From: Sphingorhabdus sp.
GTDB taxonomy: Bacteria; Pseudomonadota; Alphaproteobacteria; Sphingomonadales; Sphingomonadaceae
Direction: 5' to 3'
Assembly: GCA_017987825.1 (NCBI GenBank)
Contig: JAGNSY010000001.1
Span: 1-61,879 of the forward strand
Length of the DNA: 61,879 nt
In this document: positions 2,707 to 52,771 of the stretch, in pieces
Position numbering within the stretch: position 1 is the first letter of the stretch
Layout of the letters: every line of letters starts with the position of its first letter
The notes under the pieces: generated by a model
Databases searched by the model: none
The model's input: only the letters and a program-made list of their open reading frames with translations
What the model was told of the DNA's origin: nothing
Program-made: the position numbers and the translations under genes

Positions 2707-2722
2707 TTAATTTGAATTTAAC
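2707..2722. promoter_or_regulatory. CtrA-binding box (TTAA-N7-TTAAC)
   Basis: TTAA tttgaat TTAAC; also reads TTAA-N7-TTAAC on the minus strand; about 115 bp upstream of the DUF2336-like gene. Confidence 0.7.
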
Positions 2723-3915
2723 TGTCCGGCAGTTCGCTGTTGCTGCCAAAGGCTCCAGATATTCAGCGCAAGAATGGCCGCTATGCTGACCTTGGATGCC
2801 AGCGCCAGAGCGCCAAAGGCGAAACCCGCAATGAGCAAGATGGCGACGGTCAAAGGTGATACCAACCGAACCAACCTGGAAGTCGGCGCCATATGAGACA
2901 TCAAGATCAACCCGGATCCGATAGCCGTCAGAAATATCGCATCGGAAAGCGTTTGCCCGCCACGCCACAACGTAGTCGCAACTGTTGCGAGCGCAATGAC
3001 TTGGCCAGCTATTCGCAAATAGTCTTTTGATTTACTGAAATATTCTGTCGATCGAATTTGCTGCCTAAAGACGTCGAGGCATAGTGCCGAAATCAACAAT
3101 GCCAGTGCCCACCCCGGAAAGTTCGCATAAGCCAAACCTGCAGAGGACAGCGATAGTGCAATCGGAGCATAGTTAACCAAGGCAGGCAGCCAAGGGGTCT
3201 TCGATACGGGCGAAATCAACCGGTGGCCCAAAGCTCCAATCGCAGATTCAAGCACTCCAAGCTCATGGCCTGCCAACAAAATGGTCGCAGCAACTTTTTC
3301 ATATTCCGATTCATTTGAAATTTTGAGCAGCGAACCATCTGTTATCCGTTGCTGGCTGATCGTGATTTCCTTGGCCCCCAGTTGCAAAGCATGGCGCAGC
3401 AGAAAGGACGCCAGATTCCAGCCCTCTGGCATAGACGTCGAATATTGGAGGAAATTGGCCTCCAAAACGGCGATCCCTGACCAGCGCCGGTTCAGATCAA
3501 TGCGTTCGAACCGATTATTGGCCGGTTCTTCTTCAACTATGCCAATGCTGTTCGATTTCCAGCGCAAAGCATCCTGCAGCGATAAATCGTCAACCCATAT
3601 GTCCGAAGAAATCAACAGGAACGGATGCTGGAAGCCAATAGCATCTGCGGCGCTGCCGTTTGACCGCATCAGACGCACATTGTTGCCGTCCACACGCAAT
3701 TGCTCGATCAGATGCGGCAATTCAGCAGGAACAGCGTCGACGGATATGATGATGTCACTTACACCGAACCGCTGCAGTTGCTTTACTTGATGAAAAATAG
3801 CGGGTTTTCCAAATATTCTTGGCAAGGCTATCGGCATGCCTGCATCATCGAGCGGTGCTTCAACGCAGATCAACGCGCATTGAATATGGGGAATATTCTG
3901 CAATGGATCGGGCAT
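2707..3915 (-). CDS. Membrane protein with degenerate nucleotidyltransferase-like N-terminal domain and several C-terminal TM helices
   Basis: 'PIALPRIFGKPAIFHQVKQLQRFGVSDIII' resembles the NTP-transferase N-terminus but has no LAAG-G-R loop; hydrophobic C-terminal third. Confidence 0.6.
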   Translation of the reverse strand: MPDPLQNIPHIQCALICVEAPLDDAGMPIALPRIFGKPAIFHQVKQLQRFGVSDIIISVDAVPAELPHLIEQLRVDGNNVRLMRSNGSAADAIGFQHPFLLISSDIWVDDLSLQDALRWKSNSIGIVEEEPANNRFERIDLNRRWSGIAVLEANFLQYSTSMPEGWNLASFLLRHALQLGAKEITISQQRITDGSLLKISNESEYEKVAATILLAGHELGVLESAIGALGHRLISPVSKTPWLPALVNYAPIALSLSSAGLAYANFPGWALALLISALCLDVFRQQIRSTEYFSKSKDYLRIAGQVIALATVATTLWRGGQTLSDAIFLTAIGSGLILMSHMAPTSRLVRLVSPLTVAILLIAGFAFGALALASKVSIAAILALNIWSLWQQQRTAGQLNSN

Positions 3916-4319: not shown

Positions 4320-4370
4320 GGCAGGTTAACTTTGCGTTTCAACAGTCCTAAATTGTGGTAAATGTGTCCC

Positions 4371-6665
4371 ATGACGGCACAATCCAAGATAGTCGAAATC
4401 GGCCGCTCGCAGAGCGAAACAGGCCCTTCCGAAATTATTGCTGACGAGCAGATGGAAGTTCAGAACGAACTTTTAAATACACCGTCATCAGAAGAATATC
4501 TGGAAAGCGAATGGCTCGATGCCGTTGAGCCGGCGCGACCTTGGGGCAAAATTCTGCTGATGCTTACACTGTCGGCAGTGGCAATTGGCTGGACAGGGTT
4601 CTTCATTTGGGCACATTTGCCAGAGATACTTGCACTTCCCGCGCCCGACAGAATAAGCGGGCTGATTGTGCAATGGTCGGCCCCCGTCGCCGTTATTGCC
4701 CTATTGTGGCTTCTCTCGCTGCGCATGAGTTCGACCGAGGCCAAGCGTTTCGGTGATGTAGCGGCGCTGTTGCGGGTTGAAAGCGATGCGCTGCAAGAAC
4801 GGATGCGCAACGTGAACGGTGAGATTGCATTGGCGCGATCCTTCCTCGCCGAAAATGCTAAAGAACTTGAATCTATCGGCAGGCTCTCGTCTCAACGGCT
4901 AACCGAAGCTGCGACGCAATTGAGCACTGCATTGACCGATTCCGACGAGCGGGCAAAAATGCTGCAGGTCGCTAGCAACGCGGCGGTGACCAATCTTGAG
5001 CAACTTCGCAATCATTTGCCCGTCGTGACCAGCGCGGCGAAGGATGCGACTAATCAGATCGGCATTGCTGGAAATACCGCGCATAGCCAGATTCAGGCGA
5101 TCATAGGCGTTCTGAAAACGATGGACGAAGGCGCCGCGCGCGCGAATGATACGCTTCAATCTCTCGACACTCAGATCAGCAAAAGCACCGCGTCGCTTGA
5201 CGGGAAACTCTCGGCTACAACCAGCCATCTCACTCAGACCGTGCAACAGTCCGAGGATCAGGCCAAAACCATGCTCGCGGCGCTTGCAACTGGCGTCACC
5301 GAGGCCGAGCAACGTTTGATTGATACTGCAAACCAGCTTGATGAACGGATGGCCACAAGCCACCAGCGACTGGAAGGCAATCTGGGCAGCCTCGGCGAAG
5401 CGATAGCCCATCTCGAGGCCGTAAGCGACGCGCAGGATTCGACCAGCAAAGCGTTACTTGCTCGAGTTAGGGAATCGATCGTTGAATGCCGGGGCGAATT
5501 GTCCAAATTCGGTGATGACGCAAGCGACAGCATTGCCAAGCTGGCGTTTAGTGTGTCGGCGCTCAATGAGCGTGGCGAAGAGCTGGACGGAAAACTGGCT
5601 CGCACTCAGGAGCAAACAGAGTCTTTGATCCAGCAAGCCGGGCAAATGCGGGCAAGCATGGACGGCATTGCAGACGAAACCGCTGAGCGACTTGTTTCCC
5701 AGCTTGATCGGGTCAATGCAATGTTTGCAGAAGTTCAGGCCGCATTTTCGTCAATTAACAGCGGTCTGGCAGAGGCGGATAGCGGGACCGGCTCTTTGGT
5801 AGAATCGGTTTCCTCGCTCGAACAGATGGTGTCGACTCAAAGGAATGCGTTGGCCAATCTGAACGAAAGCTCGGCAGAATATCTAACTGCGCAGCATGAA
5901 CAGGTCGATATATTGTCGGCCGCGATTGTGCATACGCGCACCGCGCTTGAAGAGCTTTCGGGCATAGCCAATGAGCAGCTTGTGGCGTCGCTTCTCCGTG
6001 TGCGCGAGACGACCAAACAAGCGGCCGAAGCAAGCCGTAAGATTGTTGATGAAGAACTGGCAACGGTCGCGGACAAGATGAACGAGCGCAACCGCGTTGC
6101 CATCGAAACTGCAGTGGACGAGCAGGTAAAGGCGCTTGATGCAGCGATGCGCGATGCGTTTGACCGCAACCTGACGCTGGCCGCTGGTGTCGAAGAACGG
6201 ATCGGTTCGCAACTTAAACTGGTGGACGAAATGGCCGCCAACCTCGAACAGCGTGTCAACGAAGCGCATACCGCTTTTGCCGGACTTGACGACGAAGGCT
6301 TTGCCCGTCGCATGGCACTGCTGACCGAATCCTTGAATTCTGCCGCGATCGACGTGGCCAAAATCCTGTCAAATGAAGTGACCGATACGGCATGGGCAGC
6401 GTATCTGAAGGGCGACCGCGGCGTATTTACGCGCCGTGCAGTGCGCCTCCTCGACAGTGGTGAAGCGAAGATTATTGCCGCGCATTATGATGAGGACGCC
6501 GAGTTCCGTGAGCATGTGAACCGCTATATCCACGATTTTGAATCGATGATGCGCGTCCTGCTGAGTACCCGCGATGGCAATGCCATTGGCGTCACCCTAT
6601 TATCCTCGGATGTAGGTAAACTCTATGTCGCGCTCGCCCAGGCGATCGAGCGGTTGCGCAACTAA
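4371..6665 (+). CDS. Membrane-anchored long coiled-coil polar scaffold, TipN/GPR(RgsE)-like
   Basis: Two N-terminal TM helices and roughly 500 aa of Ala/Glu/Leu/Gln-rich helix; C-terminal 'WAAYLKGDRGVFTRR...FREHVNRYIHDFE...LLSSDVGKLYVALAQA' resembles the GPR/RgsE C-terminus. Confidence 0.65.
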   Translation: MTAQSKIVEIGRSQSETGPSEIIADEQMEVQNELLNTPSSEEYLESEWLDAVEPARPWGKILLMLTLSAVAIGWTGFFIWAHLPEILALPAPDRISGLIVQWSAPVAVIALLWLLSLRMSSTEAKRFGDVAALLRVESDALQERMRNVNGEIALARSFLAENAKELESIGRLSSQRLTEAATQLSTALTDSDERAKMLQVASNAAVTNLEQLRNHLPVVTSAAKDATNQIGIAGNTAHSQIQAIIGVLKTMDEGAARANDTLQSLDTQISKSTASLDGKLSATTSHLTQTVQQSEDQAKTMLAALATGVTEAEQRLIDTANQLDERMATSHQRLEGNLGSLGEAIAHLEAVSDAQDSTSKALLARVRESIVECRGELSKFGDDASDSIAKLAFSVSALNERGEELDGKLARTQEQTESLIQQAGQMRASMDGIADETAERLVSQLDRVNAMFAEVQAAFSSINSGLAEADSGTGSLVESVSSLEQMVSTQRNALANLNESSAEYLTAQHEQVDILSAAIVHTRTALEELSGIANEQLVASLLRVRETTKQAAEASRKIVDEELATVADKMNERNRVAIETAVDEQVKALDAAMRDAFDRNLTLAAGVEERIGSQLKLVDEMAANLEQRVNEAHTAFAGLDDEGFARRMALLTESLNSAAIDVAKILSNEVTDTAWAAYLKGDRGVFTRRAVRLLDSGEAKIIAAHYDEDAEFREHVNRYIHDFESMMRVLLSTRDGNAIGVTLLSSDVGKLYVALAQAIERLRN

Positions 6666-35147: not shown

Positions 35148-35159
<12 letters not shown>
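34929..35159 (+). CDS. DUF2842 family small membrane protein
   Basis: 'PSWRKPMG...WPIWLQAIVYLILGTIWIAPLRPLLIWMETG'; ATGA overlap with ygfA. Confidence 0.82.
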
Positions 35160-35224
<65 letters not shown>

Positions 35225-35489: not shown

Positions 35490-36509
35490 ATGTTGAAGAC
35501 CAATTCTTCCTGCAAACGTTTCCGCAACGCATTTCTGCGTCCTGCGGCAGTGTCTGCAATCGCACTCACAAGTACTCTGCTTGCGCCTGGCCAAGCGGCA
35601 TGGGCTGCAGGCACGCTGGCCGGCACCAATATCGAAAATATTGCGACTGCCAGTTACGACACGGGTTCGGGCACGATTGATATCCAGTCGAACACCTCGG
35701 TGATCCTTGTCGACGAACTGCTCGACGTCACAGTGTCAAGCAGCACCCCCGGCGACGTTCCGACAACACCGGGCGCTACCAATGCCGTGATCACTTACCG
35801 GGTGACCAACAACGGCAATGGTCCTGAAACATTTGGACTGACGCCCAATGTTGCGAACAGCGGTGACGATTTTGATCCCACGCTGGCTCAGATTGTCATC
35901 GATACGAACAACAACGGCGTTTACGATCCCGGCGTCGATACCGTCTATGTAGCGGGCACCAACGATCCGCTACTGTCGCCCGACCAGAGCATCACCATTT
36001 TCGTCCTGACGAATATCGCGCCAACTCAAGCCAATGGCGAACGCGCAAATGTAAGCCTGGTTGCTGCTGCAACGACGGGCACGGGTGCACCCGGCACGAC
36101 ATTCGCAGGTGCTGGCGAAGGTGGTGGCAATGCCGTGGTCGGATCGAGCGGCGCAGATGGCGAAGCCAGCGGTTTTCTCCGCGTTGACGCTGCGTCGGTA
36201 GCTCTGGCTAAATCGGCAACCGTCGCAGATCCTTTTGGCGGTACGAATGCAGTACCCGGGGCCACAATCACTTACACAATTTTGGCGACGGTGAGCGGCG
36301 CCGGAACGTTGAACAATCTGGTCATCAATGACCCAGTCCCTGTTGGCACAACTTATGTTGCAGGCAGCATCACCCTACAGGCCGCCAGCCTGACTGACGC
36401 AGCAGACGTCGATGCAGCCAATTTCAATGGCACACGTGTGAGTGTTCAATTGGGCAACGTTCCCGCCGGTCAAACCCGCACCGTCACCTTCCAGACAGTT
36501 ATACAGTGA
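35490..36509 (+). CDS. Secreted DUF11-like filament subunit candidate A (N-terminal donor hairpin, C-terminal incomplete DUF11 domain)
   Basis: Signal peptide ending 'QAAWA|'; mature 'AGTLAGTNIENIATASY'; Ca-loop-like 'DTNNNGVYDPGVD'; 'VALAKS..PGATITYTI..INDPVPVGTTYVAGS..GQTRTVTFQTVIQ*'. Confidence 0.8.
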   Translation: MLKTNSSCKRFRNAFLRPAAVSAIALTSTLLAPGQAAWAAGTLAGTNIENIATASYDTGSGTIDIQSNTSVILVDELLDVTVSSSTPGDVPTTPGATNAVITYRVTNNGNGPETFGLTPNVANSGDDFDPTLAQIVIDTNNNGVYDPGVDTVYVAGTNDPLLSPDQSITIFVLTNIAPTQANGERANVSLVAAATTGTGAPGTTFAGAGEGGGNAVVGSSGADGEASGFLRVDAASVALAKSATVADPFGGTNAVPGATITYTILATVSGAGTLNNLVINDPVPVGTTYVAGSITLQAASLTDAADVDAANFNGTRVSVQLGNVPAGQTRTVTFQTVIQ

Positions 36510-36976
36510 GCATCGATATGAAAAAGACCATTTTTGCTTTGCTTTCCCTAGTTGCCGCACCCTCGGTAGCTGCGCCGCTAGAATTGGCCAGCGACGTGTT
36601 TGTTGAACGCGAACATAAGCGTCCTGACGGTTCGGTTGCTACGATATTGGAGGAACCCAAACTGGTTCTTCCTGGTGATCAATTGGTGTTCGTCGTGCGT
36701 TACAAGAATGTCGGCGCACAACCCGCATCCAAATTCACCGTCACAAACCCCATCCCGCGCGCGGTTGCCTTTTCGGGCACCGCCGATGGCACTGAAATCG
36801 TGTCGATCGATGGCGGAAAGAACTGGGGTCTTCTGACACAGCTTAAAGTCAGCAAAGCCGACGGCACCTTCCGTCCGGCTCTTCCCGGTGACGTCACGCA
36901 CGTCAAATGGAATTTGAATCAAACGCTTGCGGCCGGATCGGCCGGCAAGCTCGTCTTTCGCGGGGTTGTACGATGA
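36506..36976 (+). CDS. Small secreted DUF11-like protein B (acceptor-only; cap or chaperone candidate)
   Basis: Signal peptide 'MKKTIFALLSLVAAPSVA|'; 'PGDQLVFVVRYKNVG..TNPIP..SIDGGKNW..VTHVKW..AGKLVFRGVVR*'; GTGA overlap with A (alternative ATG at 36518). Confidence 0.78.
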   Translation: MSIDMKKTIFALLSLVAAPSVAAPLELASDVFVEREHKRPDGSVATILEEPKLVLPGDQLVFVVRYKNVGAQPASKFTVTNPIPRAVAFSGTADGTEIVSIDGGKNWGLLTQLKVSKADGTFRPALPGDVTHVKWNLNQTLAAGSAGKLVFRGVVR

Positions 36977-37044
36977 CCTCCACCGAAAACCGTAAGGATT
37001 GCTGCGGCAAAAGCAATCAAACCCTCAGTAACAGGAGCATAAGC

Positions 37045-38094
37045 ATGACCAGTAAGCTTAAATTCCTCGTTGCCGCGAGCACCCTTCCGGCTGTCATAAT
37101 GAACGCGAGTTCCGCTTATGCCGCCGGAACCCTTGTCGGCACCGATATTACCAACAATGTTTCCGTCGCCTATCAGGTAGGCGGCGTCAGCCAAACTGCG
37201 GCTACGGATTCGAACATGTTCGAAGTTGACCGCAAAATTTTGTTTACCGTGCAGGAAGATGCCAATGTCACGACCTCGGTCGTGCCAGGTGAGCAAAATG
37301 CCTATACGACATTTGTTGTCAGCAATACGTCGAACGATACTCTGGATTTCTCGCTTAACCCGACGCAATTGGGTGGTGGCACGGCGACCCACGGTGGTAC
37401 CGACGTTTTTGATGTCAGCAATCTGGAAGTTTTTGTCGATAGCAATGGCAACAACCAATATGATTTTGGCGTCGACACAGCGACCACAATCAACGATCTG
37501 GCTCCCGACACGTCGGTTCGTGTCTTTATTGTTGGAGACGTTGCGCTGACCCAGACCAATGGTCAGGTTGCAGGCGTCACGCTTTCGGCAACCGCTCTGA
37601 ATAGCAACAACACGGCAATCACCGCTGCAACCGACGCAACGGCCAATACTGATGGCGTTGAAACCATCTTTGCCGACACGGGCCGTGACGGCATTGAATC
37701 GGATGAGGACGATTTCACAGTCAGCACTGCAAGCCTGACTGTCACCAAATTGAGCCGTGTCGTTCGCGATAACCTCAATGGTGCGGGAACCAGTGCAGAT
37801 GCAACCAATCCGAAGGCCGTGCCTGGCGCGACCGTCGAATATTGCATCGTTGTTGCAAACACGGGTTCACAGACGGCGACCAATGTTGCCGTATCGGACG
37901 ATCTTTCGCTCGTTCCCGACGTTACTTTTGATGCAAGCTTCACGCCCGCGACCGACGGCACTGTCGTTAGTGGTAATACCTGCACGGCAGGCGGTGGAAC
38001 AGGCTCATTCGCCAGTAACATCGTGTCAGGCACGCTGACCAACATTGGTGCGGGTCAAACCCGTACGCTGGTTTTCCGCGTAACCATCGACTGA
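37045..38094 (+). CDS. Secreted DUF11-like filament subunit candidate C (paralog of A)
   Basis: AGGAG SD; signal peptide ending 'SAYA|'; 'AGTLVGTDITNNVSVAY'; 'DSNGNNQYDFGVD'; 'LTVTKLS..PGATVEYCI..VSDDL..GQTRTLVFRVTID*'. Confidence 0.8.
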   Translation: MTSKLKFLVAASTLPAVIMNASSAYAAGTLVGTDITNNVSVAYQVGGVSQTAATDSNMFEVDRKILFTVQEDANVTTSVVPGEQNAYTTFVVSNTSNDTLDFSLNPTQLGGGTATHGGTDVFDVSNLEVFVDSNGNNQYDFGVDTATTINDLAPDTSVRVFIVGDVALTQTNGQVAGVTLSATALNSNNTAITAATDATANTDGVETIFADTGRDGIESDEDDFTVSTASLTVTKLSRVVRDNLNGAGTSADATNPKAVPGATVEYCIVVANTGSQTATNVAVSDDLSLVPDVTFDASFTPATDGTVVSGNTCTAGGGTGSFASNIVSGTLTNIGAGQTRTLVFRVTID

Positions 38095-38103
38095 GGAAAA
38101 AGG

Positions 38104-38143
38104 GGGCGGCGGGCAGCTGTACTGCCTGTCGCCCTCACTTCTT
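38104..38143 (+). terminator. Intra-operon stem-loop (attenuating terminator or mRNA stabiliser) between C and D
   Basis: GGGCGGCGGGCAG-ctgta-CTGCCTGTCGCCC, 13-bp stem with 2 G-U pairs, then TCACTTCTT. Confidence 0.65.
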
Positions 38144-41100
38144 ATGAGCACATTAACCACATCCGTTATCTTCCGCGCCGGAACGCTGGCGGCAGCTACC
38201 CACTTGGCTGCCGCCTGCCTTCCCGCGCATGCGCAAAGCTTGCCGAATATCATCAGCAACACCGCGCAGGCCGAATGGACATCGGGCGGGCAAACCCTAT
38301 CGCGGCCTTCGAACAGTGTAGACATCGTTGTGGATCGATCCAATCCGCAACCAGCCACGCTCGAAGTCTTACATTTTACGAATTCCGGCTCTTCTAGCTC
38401 GGTTCCTCTTCCACAAACCATGTGCCGAGGAACAAACGGGCTTCAACCGGTCAATCTACAGGGCGTTTTTGCTGGATATTCGACAAATCCGGCCTCAATA
38501 ATGCCCGCAACGGCCATTCGGGCGGGCGAACCACTTGTCTTGAAGGTCATCGCACCGGGCCAGAACACAAATCCAGGTGCGATCGACAGTTTTGAAGCGC
38601 AGATTGTAACCGATAGCGGCGATAGCGAGCGCATCACGCTGACCGAGTCAGCGGCGAACAGCTCAACTTTCTACGCATTAATCAACACCAAGGCCGCACC
38701 GCCGGCAGCTGTGCAGGGCGATTGCGTTTTGTCGGTCCGTCCGGGCGATCAGCTGCATTTCGACCTTGGAAACGCGCAAAATGGCACTCCGATTGCCGGC
38801 GCTGATGTCGACATCTTGGTTGATCCCTTTGGCTTGACCTTTGATAGTGCTGACGGAACGGCCGTTACCGGCACCCAAGTTACAATTGTCGATGCCAATA
38901 CAGGCCTTCCGGCGCAGGTTTTCGGTGACGATGGGGTTTCGTCGTTCCCGAGCTCGATTGTCGCGGGCAGCACTATTACCGACAGTAGCGGCGCAACCTA
39001 TGCCTTTTCGCCGGGATTCTACCGTTTTCCGTTCCTGAGCCCGGGCGATTATCGTCTCGTCATCGGCCCACCGGCGCCCTACACCCATCCCTCGGTGGCA
39101 ACACCTGCCGAAATCGCTCTGCTAACGCGGCCAGATGGCGGCCAGTTTGTGATCGCACCGGGATCTTACGGCGGTATCATCACATTGAGTGACCCGGCGC
39201 CGGTGCGCATAGACGTCCCTATGGATCGCCCGGGCGGTAGCCTGCAATTGCGCAAAACGACCTCCGCGGTAACCGCAATGCCAGGCGACGTGGTGCAATA
39301 TCGTATCGAGGTGCGGAATCCCGATCGCTCGCGAAATAGCGGACCGGTTACGGTTACCGATATATTACCTAATTCCATGCGGTTACGCCTCGAAAGTGTG
39401 CGCTACAACGGCGTGCAGGTAACTGCAACGGCTGCTGCCGATGGGTCCCAATTTTCGGTCGCTCTGCCACCACTTGCGGGCGGCGGTTCGGGGCTTTTGA
39501 CCTATTTGGCGGAAGTTCGGGTCGATGCCCGTCCCGGTGATGCAATAAACCGTGCCTCTGCGCGCGATAACCGTGGCGCAGTCAGCGAAACCGTTGATGC
39601 GGCCATCCGTATCGTTCGCGACGGAATTTCTGAGCGATTCACGCTTATCGGACGCATTACCGAAGGCGGCTGTTCGGTTGACCCACGTCAGGCGAAGGGA
39701 ATCGCAGGCGTCCGTGTGATGCTGCAGGATGGCAGCTACACCGTTACCGATCAGGATGGCCGTTATCATTTCGAAGGCCTCGTGCCCGGCCTGCACGTGG
39801 TTCAGGTCGACCCGACCACATTCCCGCTCGATCAGGCTCCGGTTGATTGCGCCAAGAACACGCGCAGCGCCGGAAATGCTATCTCGCGTTTCGTTGAAGG
39901 ACGTGGTGGCAGCCTGAAACGCGCCGATTTCCGGGCCAAACAGGTTGCGCCGCGTGAAAATGCCGCACAAATGGCTGTTCCGCTCCCGGATGCAGCTACC
40001 GATCAGGAGGCCGCTGGTGCGGAGCGCGACTGGTTCGCCGGGCAACAGCCGGGCGTCGGTTTCCTCTTCCCCGAAACCGGGCATAATCCGCGCGTTAAAA
40101 CAATCCGCGTCGCTTTCAAGCATCTCCCACGCCAAAAAGTTGAACTGTCGATCAATGGCAAAGCCGTAGATTCACTCAGCTATGATGGCACCAAAAAGAG
40201 CGCTGACGGCAAGATGCGTGTGGCAATCTGGCGCGGTATCGGCATCGAACAGGGCAACAACCGCCTGGTCGCGAAGGTTACCGACAATGACGGCAACCTC
40301 ATCGAAACAGTCGAGCACAATGTCTATTACGCCAATGCGCCCATCAATGCGCAATTTGTAAAGGAAAAGTCGGTTCTCCTCGCCGATGGCGTCACGCGTC
40401 CGCGTATTGCGGTTCGCTTGACCGACCGCAACGGCAAACCGATCCCGCATGGCGCTGTTGGCGATTTTCAGGTCACCGACCCTTATCGCGCTGCGGTCGA
40501 AATTGACGCCCAGCAGGCCCAACAGCTGTCGGGCCTCGAACGCGCCGCGCCGGTATGGCGCGTGCATGGCGACGAAGGCATCGCTTATATCGAACTCGAA
40601 CCGACCACAGCTTCAGGAACCGTCGCGATCACTCTTCCGTTCCAGGATGGAGAAGTAAAGCGCACACAGCGCGTCGAAACTTGGCTCGATCCGGGCGGCC
40701 GCCCCTGGACCGTAGTTGGCTTTGCTGCCGGAACCCTTGGCTTTAACAAGCTTTCAGAAGGCCTTGAGGATCTGGTTGGCGAAGACGACCAGCTGAACGT
40801 CGACGGTCGTATCGCGCTCTATGCCAAGGGCCGGGTGAGCGGCAAATGGCTGATGACGCTGGCTTATGACAGCGACAAGAAGGCTGATGACGCCCGCTTC
40901 GCAGGCACCATCGATCCGCGCCGCTATTACACTGTTTATGCCGACCGCAGCGAGCAGCGTTACGACGCCGCATCGATCCGTCGCCTGTATCTGAAGCTCG
41001 AACGCCCGCAATTCTATGCACTGTTCGGTGACTATCAAACCGGCATCGATGAACCGGAACTCGCCCGTTATCAGCGCAGCTTCAACGGCATCAAGGCCGA

Positions 41101-43231
41101 ATATCGCAGCGACGAAGTGCATGCGCAGGCCTTTGCCGCCGACACGCCCTATCGCTATCGTCGCGAGGAAATCCAGGGAACCGGCCTGACCGGCCCCTAT
41201 GCGCTCGCCGCGCGCGATATCCTGGCCAACAGCGAACGCATCACCATCGAAACGCGCGATCGCCTGCAGTCGAACATCATCATCGACCGCAAAAACCTTG
41301 TGCGCCATATCGATTACGACATCGACTATCTCGCCGGAACGCTGCGTTTCCGTGAACCCATTTTGTCGCGCTCGAGCGGCCTCAACCCGCAATTCATCAT
41401 CGCCGAATATGAAGTCGATGGTATTGGCAAGCGTGTCAACAATGCAGGTGGTCGCGTCAAATGGCAGTCGCCCGATCAGAAGCTGCAGATTGCCGCCACC
41501 GCGATCCACGACGAAACCGATACCGACAAGACCAACCTCGTCGGCGCCGATGTCCGCTATCGCCCGACCGCCAACACCGAATTGCGCGCCGAATTTGCAG
41601 CTACCGACGGCAAGGCCAATGCAGGCAGTGCAACCGCCGATGCCGGCGGCGCCTCGGCCATGCTGCTCGAAGCCGAGCATCATGGCTCGAAGCTTGACGT
41701 GCTGGCTTATTATCGTCGCCAGTCGGCCCGCTTCGGTGTCGGCCAGACCAACCGTAGCGAAGTCGGTACGGAGAAGTTTGGCCTTGATGGCCGCTATCGC
41801 CTGACCGACAAGCTGTCGATCTCGGCAATCGGTTATCAGGAAGACTATATCGATACCGGTGCGCGTCGCATCGCGGGCTCGACCGAACTCGAATATCGCG
41901 ACGACAAAGCTTCGCTGCGCGCTGGTATTACCCATGCCGATGACAAGCTGGCTGACGGTTCGACCAACAAATCGACACTTGCGCGTATCGCCGGTTCTTA
42001 CAAAGTTACCAGCAAGCTCGAACTTGACGCGCAGACCGAATTCGCACTCGGCGGCGAAGACGAAAGCATCGACTTCCCTGCCCGCCACCGTCTCGGTGCG
42101 CGCTATGCGATCCGCAATGATATCGCGCTGGTCGGCAGCTACGAAATTGCCAAGGGTGAGAATATCGACGCACGCACCGCGCGTCTCGGATTTGACATCG
42201 CCCCTTGGGCAGGCGGCCGCATCGTGGCGAGCGCCAACCAGCAGGATATCGGCGAATTCGGTGCACGCAGTTTTGCCTCTTATGGCCTCGCCCAATCATT
42301 CAAGATCAACGACAAATGGTCGGTCGACTTCACCCTTGATGGCAACCAAACCATCGGCGGCTTTGATCGCAGCGATGTGATCAACCCGCTTCAGCCCGTT
42401 GCATCGGGTGGCTTCCTGGGTAGCGATGGCACGCTGACCGAAGACTTTGTCGCTATCACCAGCGGCGCCAGCTATCATGGCGAACGCTGGAGCTGGACGG
42501 GTCGTGCCGAATGGCGCGATGGTGACTCCACCCAGCGTTATGGTCTGACGACCGCAATCCTGCGCCAGATTGGCGAAGGCAAGGCTGTCGGTGGAGCGCT
42601 CAACTGGTTCAAGGCAAAGCAGAACGGCGGCGCATCGACGACAACTGCACAGGCCGAAGTCAGCTGGGCCAACCGCCCCTCGGGCAGCCAGTGGTCGTTC
42701 CTCAACAAGACCGAATATCGCTATGATGCAGTCAAGAACGCAACCGCAGGCCTTCCCGGCCCGGTCGGTGGCGCGCCGTTGCTGGTGAGTGGAGACGTAA
42801 AGTCGACCCGCATCATCAACAGCCTGTCGGTCAACTACACCCCGATCGACGAACGCGATGGCAACTTCATCGAACGCGGCGAATACGCGCTTTTCTGGGG
42901 CACCCGCTACAACACCGACCGCTTTGGCGCGGACGATGTGAAGGGCTGGAGCAATGTTGTCGGCGCGGATCTGAAGTTCGACCTGTCGGATGTCGCCGAT
43001 ATCGGTGCCTCTGGCACGGTGCGTATCGGCACCGGTGGGCAGAATATCGCCTGGTCGGGTGGACCGACGCTGACTGTGACGCCATTCAAAAACGCCAATG
43101 TAACGCTCGGCTTTAACTTTGTCGGCTTCGAAGATCGCGATTTCGAAGAGGCGCGCTACACCCGCAGCGGCCCCTTCCTGACCTTCAAGCTGAAGTTCGA
43201 CCAGACCAGCTTTCAGGGCCTGGGGCTGTAA
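38144..43231 (+). CDS. Large outer-membrane protein D: N-terminal donor hairpin, Ig/CnaB-like domains, one complete DUF11-like domain, C-terminal beta-barrel
   Basis: Signal peptide ending 'PAHA|'; 'IISNTAQAEW..SNSVDIVV'; DUF11 'LQLRKT..PGDVVQYRIEVRN..TDILP..AINRASA'; SdrD-B-like 'GVRVMLQDGSYTVTDQDGRYHF'; alternating amphipathic strands in the C-terminal half ending 'FLTFKLKFDQ'. Confidence 0.8.
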   Translation: MSTLTTSVIFRAGTLAAATHLAAACLPAHAQSLPNIISNTAQAEWTSGGQTLSRPSNSVDIVVDRSNPQPATLEVLHFTNSGSSSSVPLPQTMCRGTNGLQPVNLQGVFAGYSTNPASIMPATAIRAGEPLVLKVIAPGQNTNPGAIDSFEAQIVTDSGDSERITLTESAANSSTFYALINTKAAPPAAVQGDCVLSVRPGDQLHFDLGNAQNGTPIAGADVDILVDPFGLTFDSADGTAVTGTQVTIVDANTGLPAQVFGDDGVSSFPSSIVAGSTITDSSGATYAFSPGFYRFPFLSPGDYRLVIGPPAPYTHPSVATPAEIALLTRPDGGQFVIAPGSYGGIITLSDPAPVRIDVPMDRPGGSLQLRKTTSAVTAMPGDVVQYRIEVRNPDRSRNSGPVTVTDILPNSMRLRLESVRYNGVQVTATAAADGSQFSVALPPLAGGGSGLLTYLAEVRVDARPGDAINRASARDNRGAVSETVDAAIRIVRDGISERFTLIGRITEGGCSVDPRQAKGIAGVRVMLQDGSYTVTDQDGRYHFEGLVPGLHVVQVDPTTFPLDQAPVDCAKNTRSAGNAISRFVEGRGGSLKRADFRAKQVAPRENAAQMAVPLPDAATDQEAAGAERDWFAGQQPGVGFLFPETGHNPRVKTIRVAFKHLPRQKVELSINGKAVDSLSYDGTKKSADGKMRVAIWRGIGIEQGNNRLVAKVTDNDGNLIETVEHNVYYANAPINAQFVKEKSVLLADGVTRPRIAVRLTDRNGKPIPHGAVGDFQVTDPYRAAVEIDAQQAQQLSGLERAAPVWRVHGDEGIAYIELEPTTASGTVAITLPFQDGEVKRTQRVETWLDPGGRPWTVVGFAAGTLGFNKLSEGLEDLVGEDDQLNVDGRIALYAKGRVSGKWLMTLAYDSDKKADDARFAGTIDPRRYYTVYADRSEQRYDAASIRRLYLKLERPQFYALFGDYQTGIDEPELARYQRSFNGIKAEYRSDEVHAQAFAADTPYRYRREEIQGTGLTGPYALAARDILANSERITIETRDRLQSNIIIDRKNLVRHIDYDIDYLAGTLRFREPILSRSSGLNPQFIIAEYEVDGIGKRVNNAGGRVKWQSPDQKLQIAATAIHDETDTDKTNLVGADVRYRPTANTELRAEFAATDGKANAGSATADAGGASAMLLEAEHHGSKLDVLAYYRRQSARFGVGQTNRSEVGTEKFGLDGRYRLTDKLSISAIGYQEDYIDTGARRIAGSTELEYRDDKASLRAGITHADDKLADGSTNKSTLARIAGSYKVTSKLELDAQTEFALGGEDESIDFPARHRLGARYAIRNDIALVGSYEIAKGENIDARTARLGFDIAPWAGGRIVASANQQDIGEFGARSFASYGLAQSFKINDKWSVDFTLDGNQTIGGFDRSDVINPLQPVASGGFLGSDGTLTEDFVAITSGASYHGERWSWTGRAEWRDGDSTQRYGLTTAILRQIGEGKAVGGALNWFKAKQNGGASTTTAQAEVSWANRPSGSQWSFLNKTEYRYDAVKNATAGLPGPVGGAPLLVSGDVKSTRIINSLSVNYTPIDERDGNFIERGEYALFWGTRYNTDRFGADDVKGWSNVVGADLKFDLSDVADIGASGTVRIGTGGQNIAWSGGPTLTVTPFKNANVTLGFNFVGFEDRDFEEARYTRSGPFLTFKLKFDQTSFQGLGL

Positions 43232-48131: not shown

Positions 48132-50267
48132 ATGCTCATGCATGCGCGCATAGTCATAGTGGACGACAGATCAACGAATCTGCGCATTTACGCACAGTTC
48201 GTGTCCATGATGGGCGCGGGCTTCACATCTGTTTGTTTTCAAAGCGCAAAAGAAGCACTTGCCTGGCTGGAAAATGAAACGGCCGACCTGCTGATTGTCG
48301 ACTACCGCATGCCGGAAATGACCGGTGCAGACTTTATCCGGCAGATCCGCAACCGCCCCGACAGCCATAACATTCCCGCTATTGTCATTACTGCCCGTCA
48401 GGATCGCGAATGCCGCATCTCTGCGCTCGACGCAGGTGCCACCGATTTCCTGCAAAGTCCGGTAACCCATGCCGAATTCAAGGAACGGGCCGAGTTGCTG
48501 ATTGGCCAGCATCGCAAACGTCGCGAGATTGAAAGTCGCACCGCATCGAACTCGGCAACGAGCGATGAGCGCAACGAGCAAGTCGGCGGCAAGTCGATGC
48601 TGGAACAGATCATCGACACCACACCTGTGATGATCATCGCGACCGACCGCAACGGGAAGATACTGTTCATCAACAGCTATCAATCCGCAATGTTGGGGCA
48701 GGATACCGAGCAACTCGTCGGTCATTCGATAAATGACATATTCGAGGCCCATCTTGCCGAGCGCGAACAACGGCGTAATGCGCTCATTATCGACGGTGCC
48801 CAATCGATCCCCAATTATGAGGAAGTGTTCGTCAGCGACGGCGTACAACTGACCTTCCACTGCAACAAATCACCTCTGCTCAACAAGGATGGCCAGGTGA
48901 TCGGGGTGCTAACCTCTGCAGTCGATATTACCGCGCGCAAATTTGCAGAAGAGCACCGCGCGCATCTGGCGCTGCATGATTTGCTGACCGGGCTGCCGAA
49001 CCGCGCGCTTCTGGCCGAACATATGCGCCAGACGATCGAGGAATGTAGCGCCACGGGAAACAAAGCTGCCCTCCTGCTGGTTGATCTCGATCGGTTCAAG
49101 GTGATCAACGATACCCGCGGCCATCAGGCAGGCGACACATTGCTTAGGCAGGTTGCAGAACGGATTAATAGCGCGCTCGACGCCAACGAACTCGCAGCGC
49201 GTATCGGCGGTGACGAATTTGCGATCATTCTCCGAAATGTCGAGAGCGTTGAGGATGTGAGCAGTAAATGCCACCATCTACTAGCCCAGATCGGCAAGCA
49301 TTATGCCATCGGCGATTCTGACCAACGGATAGGGGCCAGCATCGGTGTGGCGATGATCCCTGACGACAGCAATTCGCCCGATGAACTGCTGCGTCTGGCC
49401 GATCTTGCCATGTACGAAGCCAAGTCGAGCGGACGAAACTGCCACTGTTTCTTCTCACCCAAGCTGAACCAGATCGCCCAGTTCAATGCCGGCGTCGAAG
49501 CGGATCTTCGCCGGGCGATCGAGAATGACGAGCTCTTCCTGGAATATCAGCCCATCGTTGAAGCGCAGAGCAGTGCCTATGCAGGGCTGGAGGCGCTATT
49601 GCGGTGGCAGCACCCGACACGCGGGCGATTAATGCCAAGCGAGTTCATGCGCGTTGCGAATGACTCAGGCCTGATCGACCGGATCGGTCAATGGGTGATC
49701 GACGCAGTCTGTCGCCAGATTTCCGAATTTGATAGTGAGGGCATTGTTGTTCCACATATCGCGATCAACGTTTCTCCGCGCCAATTTCAAGCAGGCAGGC
49801 TGTGCGAGGAAATCCTCGGGAAAATTGCGCAATATAATATTGAGCCAGGTCAACTCGTCGTCGAGATCACAGAAGAGCTGCTCCTTGATCAGAGCAGCCA
49901 GTTGATGGACCAGCTGCGCAGTCTGCGCAAAAATGGCATTGAATTGTCTATCGACGATTTCGGCACAGGCTATTCGTCACTGCAATATCTGCGCGATTTG
50001 CCCGCCAATCGTTTGAAAATTGACCAGACTTTCGTTTCGCGGATCGAACATTCGGCGACCGACAGGGCAATCATTTCGACCATTGCCCATCTGGCCCATG
50101 CTCTGAATATGCGGGTGGTCGCCGAAGGCGTGGAAACCGAGGCTCAACGCATGCTGCTGCGCGCATCAGGGTGTGACGAATTGCAAGGCTATCTATTCGG
50201 ACGTTCCCTTTCCGTCGATCGACTGAAAGAGATTTTCGGACCGTCGATTGCGGTGGTGCAACCATGA
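48132..50267 (+). CDS. Response regulator REC-PAS-GGDEF-EAL (c-di-GMP cyclase/phosphodiesterase)
   Basis: REC 'IVIVDD..LLIVDYRMP'; PAS 'IIATDRNGKILFIN'; 'HDLLTGLPNR', 'RIGGDEF'; EAL 'GLEALLRW', 'IDDFGTGYSSL', 'VAEGVE'. Confidence 0.93.
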   Translation: MLMHARIVIVDDRSTNLRIYAQFVSMMGAGFTSVCFQSAKEALAWLENETADLLIVDYRMPEMTGADFIRQIRNRPDSHNIPAIVITARQDRECRISALDAGATDFLQSPVTHAEFKERAELLIGQHRKRREIESRTASNSATSDERNEQVGGKSMLEQIIDTTPVMIIATDRNGKILFINSYQSAMLGQDTEQLVGHSINDIFEAHLAEREQRRNALIIDGAQSIPNYEEVFVSDGVQLTFHCNKSPLLNKDGQVIGVLTSAVDITARKFAEEHRAHLALHDLLTGLPNRALLAEHMRQTIEECSATGNKAALLLVDLDRFKVINDTRGHQAGDTLLRQVAERINSALDANELAARIGGDEFAIILRNVESVEDVSSKCHHLLAQIGKHYAIGDSDQRIGASIGVAMIPDDSNSPDELLRLADLAMYEAKSSGRNCHCFFSPKLNQIAQFNAGVEADLRRAIENDELFLEYQPIVEAQSSAYAGLEALLRWQHPTRGRLMPSEFMRVANDSGLIDRIGQWVIDAVCRQISEFDSEGIVVPHIAINVSPRQFQAGRLCEEILGKIAQYNIEPGQLVVEITEELLLDQSSQLMDQLRSLRKNGIELSIDDFGTGYSSLQYLRDLPANRLKIDQTFVSRIEHSATDRAIISTIAHLAHALNMRVVAEGVETEAQRMLLRASGCDELQGYLFGRSLSVDRLKEIFGPSIAVVQP

Positions 50268-52771
50268 AGCGCTTCCTCCCCAAAAAAGGCAGTCTGGCCC
50301 CCGAACAGGAAATCCTGTTGAACCGCATGGTTATGGGCAGCACTGCCGGAACTGCAGTATATTTCCTCGCCTACAACGCTTTCCTTCTGGAAGCGTTTCT
50401 TGTTTACCTGTCGCTGAACGCAGCGCTTTTCCTGATGTGGCGTTCAGATGTCTGGAAACAGGAGCGGCGTTGGGTTTCGGCAATCGTGATGGATGTCGGC
50501 ATGGCTTTTGCCGTGATGATGCATTCTGCAGAGTCTATGTCTTTCTTCTATCCCCTGTTCCTGTGGGTCATATTGGGCAACGGCTTCCGGTTTGGCGTCC
50601 GCTTTCTGGTGATCGGATCTGCATTGGCGGTCGCCGCATTCAGTACGGTTGTTTTCACGACAGATTATTGGCAACCAAACCAGACGCTCGGTATCAGCCT
50701 GATACTGGCGCTGATTGTCATTCCTGCATATTGTTCCACGCTCATCAAAAAACTGTCGCTGGCAAAGGAAGCCGCCGAAGCGGCAAATCGGGCCAAGGGC
50801 TATTTCCTCGCGAGCGTCAGCCACGAGTTGCGTACGCCGCTGAATGCCATCATTGGATATGGCAACCATCTGCGCCAGATGGCGATGCCCAAAAACCAGC
50901 ATGATATGGTTGAAGCCAGCGTTTTGGCAGGCGAGCATCTGCTGCACCTCATCGACCAGCTGATCCAGATTGCGCGTAGCGATAGCAATACCGCTCAAAT
51001 TGTCATGCGACCGTTGCGGATAACCGAATTGCTTACCGAGATGCGCGACATCATGCTCGTTAGGGCAGACGATAAGTCGATTGGGCTGCAGATCGCCGCC
51101 GAACCCATGAGCGACCGGATTGTCGACGGCCCGGCTGATATTATCCGCAATATTCTGCTAAACTTGGCGGGCAATGCCATAAAGTTTACCGAAGCCGGGG
51201 CGGTTTCGGTTAATGCCGGGCTGCGCGAAGCTGACGGCAACACGACCTTGTGGTTTAGCGTCAGTGACACCGGAATCGGTATTGCAGAAGACGCGATGGG
51301 CAAGATTTTCGAGCCGTTCCAGCAAGCTGACGATACGGTGATGAATCGTTTTGGGGGCACCGGCCTGGGCCTAGCGATATGCAAACAGCTTTTGACGCAA
51401 GTAGGCGGACAAATCAGGGTCGATAGCGTCATCGGCAAGGGCAGCACATTCACTGTGGAACTGCCCGTGTCTTTGGCCGACGCCGAAAACGGGGCCTATG
51501 ACAATGAATATGGAGCCCCGGTAAAAATAGTCGCGCTCGGAATGTTTGAGCATGAACTGCTCGCAAAAGCGCAAAATGCAGGCAATTATCTGGTAAAGAA
51601 TATCAGCTGCCACGGCCCTGATGATCTCGAAAAGGCGGTTGCATCGCTGGAACTGGCCAGCTTTGACATTGCCATGATCGACGATCGTGTAGCCAATGAA
51701 CTGGACGCGGAATCGACGGTTTGGAATCTGTTCACAGAGGCCGAAGTCGCCGCCGTCCTGATCTCTCACGATGTCGAGCCTGACCTTGGAGAGATTGAAT
51801 TGCGGGCTGCTTTTGCGACCGTTATACCGGCAGATGCCAGCTTTAACGAGCTTAGGAGCGCGATCAGGATTGGTTGCTCTTTTGCCCACAAGCCGCATTT
51901 CGATGAACGTTCATCATCAAATCAGCCTGCTGAACCAGCAGTTTATAGTCCACGATCGGTGCTGGTCGCTGATGACAATCGGACGAACCGGAACATATTA
52001 ACAGCCATTCTCGAAGCAGCGGGACATAAGGTAACGCAAGTTTGCGATGGCGATGAAGTTCTCGAAATCCTGGAGAAGGAAAAGTTCGATATCCTTCTGC
52101 TCGACGTCAACATGCCGCGCCTGAACGGCATCGATGCTTGCCGGATGTGGCGTCAGATCGAAGGCAATCGCGCGCATCTTCCCATCGTCGGTGTAACAGC
52201 AGATGCAACAACCGAAACCGAAACCCGTTGCCTTGGCGCCGGTATGGATCTGCGCCTGACCAAGCCGATCAATGCGGCACTCTTGCTTGCTACGATCGAG
52301 AAATGCTGCGGAAATACGCCGTCCGCGCACATCCTTCCCGACAGCAAACAGGATCCCCTTAAAGTCGTCGTTCCGTTGGAACGGGGCAAAGAAGCTGTTT
52401 CGGACGACCGCGCAATCGATAGCGGCCACATGGATTATTTGGCCTCAATCGGAGATGCAGAATTTGTCGAGAGCATGATCGAAGGTTTTATCGAGGACTC
52501 GATGGAAAGCAGTGCCACGATGCTTCAGGCGATCACCGAAAAAGATCCTGCCCTGTTCCGTTTTGCCGCCCATGCATTCAAAAGTGCTTCAAATAATATC
52601 GGCGCGACACAACTCGCCGCTTTGTGCAGCAGGCTGGAGAAAATCACCGAAGCAGAGTTCGGAGAAATGGGTCGATCCTATTTTGCTCAAGTCGAAAAGG
52701 AATTGGACCGCGCGAAAAGCGAACTCGGATCGGCCAAAGCGCAACAACCGCCCAGAGCAAAATCGAACTAG
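50264..52771 (+). CDS. rpfC: Hybrid sensor kinase, RpfC-like (about 5 TM, HisKA, HATPase, REC, HPt)
   Basis: TM region 'LWVILGNGFRFG'; 'SVSHELRTPLN'; 'GGTGLGL'; REC 'DILLLDVNMP'; HPt 'AAHAFKSAS'; convergent with rpfF-like gene. Confidence 0.8.
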   Translation: MKRFLPKKGSLAPEQEILLNRMVMGSTAGTAVYFLAYNAFLLEAFLVYLSLNAALFLMWRSDVWKQERRWVSAIVMDVGMAFAVMMHSAESMSFFYPLFLWVILGNGFRFGVRFLVIGSALAVAAFSTVVFTTDYWQPNQTLGISLILALIVIPAYCSTLIKKLSLAKEAAEAANRAKGYFLASVSHELRTPLNAIIGYGNHLRQMAMPKNQHDMVEASVLAGEHLLHLIDQLIQIARSDSNTAQIVMRPLRITELLTEMRDIMLVRADDKSIGLQIAAEPMSDRIVDGPADIIRNILLNLAGNAIKFTEAGAVSVNAGLREADGNTTLWFSVSDTGIGIAEDAMGKIFEPFQQADDTVMNRFGGTGLGLAICKQLLTQVGGQIRVDSVIGKGSTFTVELPVSLADAENGAYDNEYGAPVKIVALGMFEHELLAKAQNAGNYLVKNISCHGPDDLEKAVASLELASFDIAMIDDRVANELDAESTVWNLFTEAEVAAVLISHDVEPDLGEIELRAAFATVIPADASFNELRSAIRIGCSFAHKPHFDERSSSNQPAEPAVYSPRSVLVADDNRTNRNILTAILEAAGHKVTQVCDGDEVLEILEKEKFDILLLDVNMPRLNGIDACRMWRQIEGNRAHLPIVGVTADATTETETRCLGAGMDLRLTKPINAALLLATIEKCCGNTPSAHILPDSKQDPLKVVVPLERGKEAVSDDRAIDSGHMDYLASIGDAEFVESMIEGFIEDSMESSATMLQAITEKDPALFRFAAHAFKSASNNIGATQLAALCSRLEKITEAEFGEMGRSYFAQVEKELDRAKSELGSAKAQQPPRAKSN

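Follow-up and report, generated by a model that had tools for sequence, protein, structure and literature searches.

A proposed surface fibre of split CLIPPER domains, probably covalent, and its predicted outer-membrane barrel in a four-gene cluster of Sphingorhabdus

The stretch of Sphingorhabdus sp. DNA analysed here, 61,879 nucleotides long and called the window throughout (NCBI GenBank assembly GCA_017987825.1, contig JAGNSY010000001.1, positions 1 to 61,879 of the forward strand), carries four adjoining genes, A to D, which we read, with a probability of about 70%, as encoding a surface fibre of split CLIPPER domains, probably covalent, that has a barrel of its own. CLIPPER is the new name of the DUF11 domain; an intramolecular Lys715-Asn806 bond, presumably catalysed by Asp748, is described for it in PDB entry 9IFR (PMC12617251). 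In A and C a domain of this kind breaks off at the C-terminus, leaving what we call a socket, and a hairpin that appears to be the missing piece, the plug, stands at the N-terminus; B has a socket and no plug, and D begins with a lone plug and ends in a predicted large barrel. Architecture, distribution of the bond-forming triad, gene order and conservation are taken from sequence, and insertion in trans and the barrel fold from structure prediction. The features, with lengths in amino acids (aa), are:

35490-36509, + strand: A, 339 aa, plug-middle-socket subunit; signal about aa 1-39 (by eye), plug aa 40-75 with Asn50, immunoglobulin (Ig)-like middle domain, socket aa 234-339 with Lys241 and Asp281
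36518-36976, + strand: B, 152 aa, socket-only protein
37045-38094, + strand: C, 349 aa, plug-middle-socket subunit; plug aa 27-63 with Asn37, socket aa 229-349 with Lys235 and Asp285
38102..38136, + strand: GC-rich stem-loop of 15 pairs between C and D
38144-43231, + strand: D, 1695 aa, base and predicted pore
38246..38338, + strand: lone plug at the N-terminus of D, aa 35-65, with Asn39
39239..39616, + strand: complete CLIPPER domain of D, aa 366-491, with Lys371, Asp406 and Asn469
40691..43228, + strand: outer-membrane beta-barrel of D, aa 850-1695, from a structure model

The complete domain inside D, already recognized as DUF11-like in the initial annotation, covers positions 2-98 of the 114 in the Pfam DUF11 profile (PF01345) and scores 30.0 bits, above the curated cut-off of 24.6. 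It aligns to 9IFR (E 0.014) with Lys371 on Lys715 and Asn469 on Asn806, and with Asp406 on an Asp of the neighbouring strand that is, by our own count, one residue off the published Asp748. Among the four proteins this is the only domain to hold the whole Lys/Asp/Asn triad, with Lys in strand 1 and Asn in the penultimate strand, and all 20 relatives compared retain it. A and C have the triad divided, Lys and Asp lying in the socket and Asn in the plug, and all three residues are retained in 20/20 operons; for A the same is true of all 118 close relatives, and among 134 C-like representatives (cluster representatives below 50% identity and 300-420 aa long, 16 of 150 hits having been dropped for length) the Asn is present in 132, the Lys in 126 and the Asp in 131. 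The Asn of the D plug is found in 19 of 20 relatives, the twentieth being without that N-terminal part. Any joining of plug and socket would thus rebuild the full triad, and a Lys-Asn isopeptide bond between subunits is likely on these sequence grounds. The initial annotation was right about the division into hairpin and socket and overlooked the division of the isopeptide triad that goes with it. In the ESM Atlas only unnamed or DUF11 clusters were found.

The truncation of A and C that had been noted earlier is confirmed. Coverage of the PF01345 profile is 11-82 in A, 7-83 in C and 13-56 in B, with scores of 26.6 bits for C, above the cut-off, and 22.1 and 17.2 bits for A and B, below it; A, C and D pass the cut-off of TIGR01451 and B fails it. 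When profiles are aligned with that of the complete domain (140 columns), the C-terminal domain of A and C matches columns 2-95 (probability 98%) and B columns 12-96 (97%), and no contiguous complete CLIPPER domain was found in A, B or C, all matches ending at column 95-96 of 140. A and C terminate directly after strand 7, on their last beta-strand and without a tail. Since 130 of the 134 C-like representatives end 0-2 residues past the final socket strand, and all 118 close relatives of A stop precisely at that strand, the truncation is not a matter of chance. Between plug and socket, the middle domains (C aa 64-228, A aa 77-234) have conserved Asp/Asn-rich loops, which we take to resemble calcium sites.

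That the N-terminal hairpins are the missing piece of the domain is a claim carried by four results: the near-invariant Asn, a natural fusion, a join on another contig of the same genome and a model of the complex. The fusion, P0153, is a natural protein of 696 aa in which two C-like units stand head to tail and the first socket continues straight into the second plug, so that socket 1 and hairpin 2 make up an ordinary complete domain. On the other contig (C209) the last 97 aa of an upstream protein match residues 1-93 of a complete domain of the next gene, whose own N-terminus matches residues 101-128 of that same domain, scores reached by 0 of 500 and 0 of 2000 shuffles. This locus (C209:13084-22887, L181) consists of a GEVED protein ending in a socket, a long CLIPPER protein that starts with a plug and has internal assembly gaps, and a separate barrel gene; it is a single-joint version of the same design. 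A mixed subunit is also known, P0164 (734 aa): a plug and middle domain at its N-terminus are joined by a complete DUF11, a passenger domain and a socket of the tip type.

The model of the complex bears on whether the plug acts in cis or in trans, and provides the C-C modelling that the initial annotation had suggested. In three competition runs, full mature C, with its own socket present, was modelled together with a second, free socket. In 3/3 runs the free socket took up plug residues 1-38 and was also bound by the top of the middle domain, with contact agreement of at least 95% and a partner predicted local distance difference test (pLDDT) value of at least 90. The score was 0.86, as against 0.00 for the best of three controls, and passes a mark that 116 of 157 solved complexes attain, as do 2 of 215 mismatched pairs. 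Asn11, Lys209 and Asp259 (mature numbering) are all interface residues, the conserved IPG motif packs on Asp36, and the invariant Asn97 of the C middle domain sits at the modelled subunit junction. The model supports trans insertion of the plug, short of demonstrating binding. Together with P0153 and the C209 join it favours the head-to-tail complementation from a barrel-bearing base that was first proposed. Joins between chains are in any case required by the D plug, which has no free socket in its own chain, and by tip proteins that have sockets and no plugs. Fold searches with the C model gave, among the matches listed, generic Ig-like matches only (best Z 8.9, template modelling (TM) score below 0.4) and not 9IFR; an end-to-end alignment of the C monomer with integrin leg domains (root-mean-square deviation (rmsd) about 10.5) is too loose to place the plug. 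PDB sequence searches with A and C gave nothing meaningful.

A different view of the same proteins takes A and C for circularly permuted monomers that complete themselves, each with its middle domain as an insertion and the bond within one chain, secreted as soluble or surface-bound adhesins. The AlphaFold2 model of mature C has high confidence over its whole length, including the plug (pLDDT 96, predicted TM score 0.86), which leaves room for such a monomer; CnaA and CnaB folds tolerate domain insertions (PMC12617251), and co-evolution is blind to the difference between cis and trans. The preference of the plug for the free socket over its own in all three runs argues the other way, as does the P0153 fusion, and self-completion leaves both the lone plug of D and 30 plug-less sockets unexplained. 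We consider it highly unlikely.

Besides the room left by the C monomer model, the following points weigh against the split fibre. Compared by sequence with the terminal hairpin of D, the N-terminal hairpin of C is matched by 65 of 100 column shuffles and that of A by 11 of 100; for the D plug none of 100 shuffles is as good, yet the alignment is out of register and not significant, and windows of the middle domain score as high against the terminal hairpin as the plugs do. At a class II locus (L170) the plug homology test was likewise not significant, 612 of 2000 shuffles reaching the score. In the A and C plug alignments Asn does fall on Asn, and from the sequences of A, C and D alone the hairpins are not provable as the missing piece; that claim draws its support from the four results above. 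P0153 is a single sequence. The complex modelling covered the C-on-C pair, with both chains taken from the same alignment, its output does not include the Asn-Lys distance, and its pass may stem from likeness to solved CnaA-type domains. Finally, fibre, bond and export are predictions from genes and models.

One departure from the initial annotation concerns B. It had been described as having only the truncated acceptor, and it is indeed a single truncated CLIPPER domain without a plug, but the residues that would form the bond are gone: Ser25 and Asn77 stand at the Lys and Asp columns. Both residues are likewise lacking in 20/20 relatives, where Ser, Asn, Gly or Thr takes the place of the Lys and Asn (19) or Thr (1) that of the Asp, and B should therefore not weld. 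Where B drops out of the operon it was found elsewhere in the genome in 5 of 5 cases tested. A constant, non-reactive and retained protein fits an assembly factor, and on sequence B is likely a non-reactive chaperone or assembly factor rather than the tip. A second B-like gene of this genome, 40% identical, stands alone at a contig end beside a penicillin-binding-protein-like gene (C66:172-723, L183).

The earlier assignment of B as the end of the filament is further undercut by the existence of socket-only adhesins that retain the two residues, which adjoin the operon in 15 of 100 loci or occupy a separate locus and bear varied passengers (P-domain, Calx-beta, GEVED, extra DUF11). Among 30 sockets of this tip type, Lys and Asp are present in 29, and a plug score was obtained for none, although one of the proteins is incomplete at the N-terminal end; the one without Lys and Asp (L120:11626-13560) lies beside a normal one. 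The Sphingorhabdus genome analysed here has two socket-only candidates (C218:1-768 and 860-1768, L182), one cut by the contig start and the other of 302 aa with a proprotein-convertase P-domain; the gene downstream of them resembles one for a glutamate-cysteine ligase. One or two variable tip genes occupy the equivalent place in relatives (L184-L189, L192). Being variable and keeping Lys and Asp, the socket-only adhesins are better tip candidates than the non-reactive B.

A and C are paralogs with 30% identity, and their probable roles differ. The stem-loop after C (z -6.3) has counterparts of different sequence with z at or below -2 after C in 14 of 20 relatives, as against 0/20 after A, 0/20 after B and 2/20 after D, a comparison in which the control is uneven, A and B running almost directly into coding sequence, and which to that extent counts against our reading. 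The likely effect of the stem-loop is less read-through into D, or else protection of the mRNA on its upstream side. Its position suggests more A-B-C than D message, with C likely the major shaft subunit; A is likely a minor or adaptor subunit. Of the interchangeable (A/C)n shaft proposed at the outset, the C-on-C join is favoured by the model, and A and C are probably not interchangeable. Codon usage, for which C ranks at the 19th percentile in this genome and is highest in only 10 of 20 relatives, was set aside as a sign of the major subunit, the pgk control having failed as well. RNA libraries (4 runs, two studies) hold contigs identical to parts of B and C in 4/4 and pieces of A and D in some; these are not counted as evidence of expression, since DNA may be present and depth cannot rank the genes. 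A promoter scan gave no excess over shuffles.

These features also bear on the possibility of a short, fixed, multi-part adhesin stalk, tip-A-C-D with one or a few copies of each and each plug specific for one socket. It would suit the single-joint systems of this genome and a relative (L181, L175), distant class I loci with two or three different shaft genes, and the codon usage of C, which is unlike that of a highly expressed gene in this genome. It sits poorly with the fit of the C plug to C's own socket type in trans in the model, with the tandem C-like fusion P0153 and with a stem-loop specific to the position after C, and we regard it as unlikely.

The base protein D agrees with its first description, a lone hairpin at the start and a predicted large barrel at the end. 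The model of residues 850-1695 has a mean pLDDT of 80 and about 38 long strands, counted from a strand list in which closure is not visible, with a small inserted domain at aa ~1005-1090. The barrel is 95% identical to a Sphingorhabdus pulchriflava protein, and its profile matches no PDB chain at E below 0.25. Its likeness to solved barrels is generic, with TM scores of at most 0.24; for FimD the values are Z 16.1, rmsd 6.4 over 304 residues and TM 0.21, with porins tied at Z 15.6. SprA, the translocon of the type IX system, has a barrel of 36 strands and resembles D in being a very large single-chain barrel, a comparison in which D differs in having no PDB sequence match. The idea, raised by a motif, that the two are homologous found no support in the PDB sequence comparison or in the fold comparison (Foldseek TM 0.16-0.18).

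The barrel family was matched in 49 of 401 sampled Pseudomonadota genomes and in 26 records of a plasmid collection, two of them cyanobacterial. Twenty distant barrel loci comprise 7 with fused D and shaft genes and 13 with a separate barrel gene beside a long CLIPPER protein. The D module at aa ~200-570, which includes SdrD_B, is homologous to the C-terminal module of giant CLIPPER adhesins, and an OmpA peptidoglycan-binding domain follows the shared module in 3 of 10 long-CLIPPER C-termini tested and in 2 of 3 distant D proteins. The simplest reading is that the barrel would serve as an export pore for an extending CLIPPER stalk whose C-terminal end stays anchored, and that D is a fusion of pore and anchor that offers a plug to catch the polymer. 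An Acinetobacter plasmid locus (L193:6240-18605, CP085288.1) carries a related cluster, whose annotation shows several short DUF11 pieces, a long DUF11 protein with a barrel match, an OmpA-family gene and a transposase. Three predicted 38-stranded barrels are mentioned for D. radiodurans (PMC9388160) and may be members of the same family.

In another interpretation the trans-complemented chains form a periplasmic or surface mesh that braces the envelope and the barrel of D is an anchor or solute pore rather than an export channel. Large Deinococcus barrels with periplasmic stalks do brace the envelope (PMC9388160), some D relatives have OmpA domains, and the D barrel resembles barrels in general only; a mesh accounts poorly for variable, adhesin-like passengers on the tip proteins and for giant fibrillar-adhesin genes adjoining the same barrel family. 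It seems to us most improbable.

All motifs quoted in the initial annotation are present in the open reading frames (ORFs) of A, B, C and D on the + strand, and the neighbourhood survey it recommended found the four genes in the order A-B-C-D at every one of 20 loci that had been selected by C. Among 100 loci surveyed, 79 have the arrangement shaft-B-shaft-D; 12 others are cut inside D, in 2 a single shaft gene stands where the contig ends, and in 7, including one on a short contig, no B adjoins. The nearest loci are from Sphingorhabdus, and the four-gene sphingomonad form is present in cultured, non-pathogenic strains; cultured carriers include Parasphingorhabdus marina DSM 22363 (L105) and Sphingorhabdus arenilitoris (L066). 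Signal peptides were judged by eye in all four proteins. A tRNA-Asp gene on the minus strand (35148-35224) precedes A by 265 bases, and on the other side the cluster is bordered by a 2-oxoacid dehydrogenase operon; the GC content of the cluster is close to that of the window, so there is no sign of a recent island. About 5 kb downstream (48132-52771) lie genes for a response regulator-PAS-GGDEF-EAL protein and a hybrid histidine kinase, with no operon link shown. Sixteen further window ORFs that were scanned are housekeeping or without an assigned family; ORFs 4362-6665 (767 aa) and 2707-3915 (402 aa) have no Pfam match at E 1e-8.

As first suggested, no usher, PapD or sortase family matches A, B, C or D in Pfam and NCBIfam, and the PF00577 usher was not found in the genome, which is 73% complete. 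There is no LPxTG sorting signal at the C-termini of A and C and no sortase in the operon (a genome-wide sortase search was not made), no Pfam or NCBIfam match to the type IX C-terminal sorting domain in A-D, and, by eye, no lipobox in A, B or C. No description of a split-CLIPPER pilus was found in the literature, of which few subscription journals were covered, and within that coverage the earlier remark that no described Gram-negative system of this layout was known holds good.

Among the closest known systems are the CLIPPER fibrillar adhesins (9IFR, PMC12617251), which share the domain and its triad, the internal domain of D being a complete member, and whose long proteins end in the CLIPPER-SdrD_B module also found in D. 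They differ in having intramolecular bonds and tandem repeats within one chain, and in the text covered here neither split domains nor a polymer nor a partner barrel is mentioned. Chaperone-usher pili (FimH-FimG-FimF-FimA, FimC and FimD; PMC13721041) likewise build on incomplete Ig-like subunits completed by the N-terminus of a neighbour, and follow the same logic of tip, adaptor, shaft and outer-membrane barrel; in the A-D system such completion is seen in the complex model only. The chaperone-usher pathway donates one strand, non-covalently, with a strand-donating PapD chaperone and a 24-strand usher, whereas in A-D two strands would be donated, with a lock predicted to be covalent; the candidate chaperone is of the socket type, and the predicted barrel has about 38 strands and the terminator fused to it. 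BsaA of Clostridium perfringens (PMC11580942) and an archaeal thread (PMC9715654) combine donor-strand exchange with an intermolecular isopeptide lock, but have TasA-like or archaeal folds, occur in cells without an outer membrane and have no barrel. Family and PDB searches gave no sequence match between them and A-D; the TasA/BsaA families do not match A-D, and their fold is absent among the fold matches listed. By analogy, the logic of A-D would be that of a chaperone-usher pilus, and its chemistry that of BsaA or the archaeal thread.

DUF11 domains also occur in surface filaments as the grappling hooks of Aureispira (GhpA) and Litorilinea (GhlA), which differ in being bundles of giant single chains (bioRxiv 2025.08.19.671072). 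The TLP-1 fibrils from pond water (PMC11494351), the Pam pili of the candidate phyla radiation (CPR; PMC13278184) and haloarchaeal tafi (PMC11821415) are donor-strand Ig-like filaments without a classic usher, with a single donated strand and different subunits. None of these three is among the PDB sequence or fold matches listed for A or C. Type V pili, found in Bacteroidales, have lipoprotein precursors and a protease-triggered strand exchange.

For the split-CLIPPER fibre we propose the following course of assembly. A, B, C and D would all be exported by the Sec pathway, to judge from their N-termini. In the periplasm the B socket, having no reactive residues, may hold plugs reversibly, the weakest step of the proposal, so that chains would not weld too early. 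A socket-only adhesin, E (the two candidates on contig C218), would form the tip, A would likely link tip to shaft, and C would repeat as the shaft through the modelled C-on-C join, the plug of each subunit completing the socket of the next, likely with a Lys-Asn isopeptide bond. The lone plug of D would fill the last open socket, thereby ending growth and tethering the fibre. D would thus be a barrel fused with the anchoring module of the C-termini of giant one-chain CLIPPER adhesins, and the covalent surface fibre would pass through that barrel.

In its fullest form the proposal is of a new Gram-negative pilus class and export route, and to this we would give even odds. Subunits would weld autocatalytically by isopeptide bonds through a donated hairpin, with neither sortase nor usher; a non-reactive decoy socket would be the chaperone, shielding the donor rather than the acceptor; tips would be interchangeable and encoded at other loci; and a family of barrels of about 38 strands would export such polymers as well as giant one-chain adhesins, the fused form bringing its own terminator with it.

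Sortase systems of Gram-positive bacteria are known to build covalent pili, and Clostridium and archaea to have isopeptide-locked donor-strand fibres. If the reading given here is true, a self-welding pilus with its own giant barrel in bacteria with two membranes would be a further class of pilus and probably bring with it a further export pathway, and the barrel family, with its matches in 49 of 401 Pseudomonadota genomes and in cyanobacterial replicons, would gain a role. It would also offer a natural polymerising plug-and-socket crosslinking pair for protein engineering. The compact four-gene form and its cultured, non-pathogenic carriers make the system directly testable.

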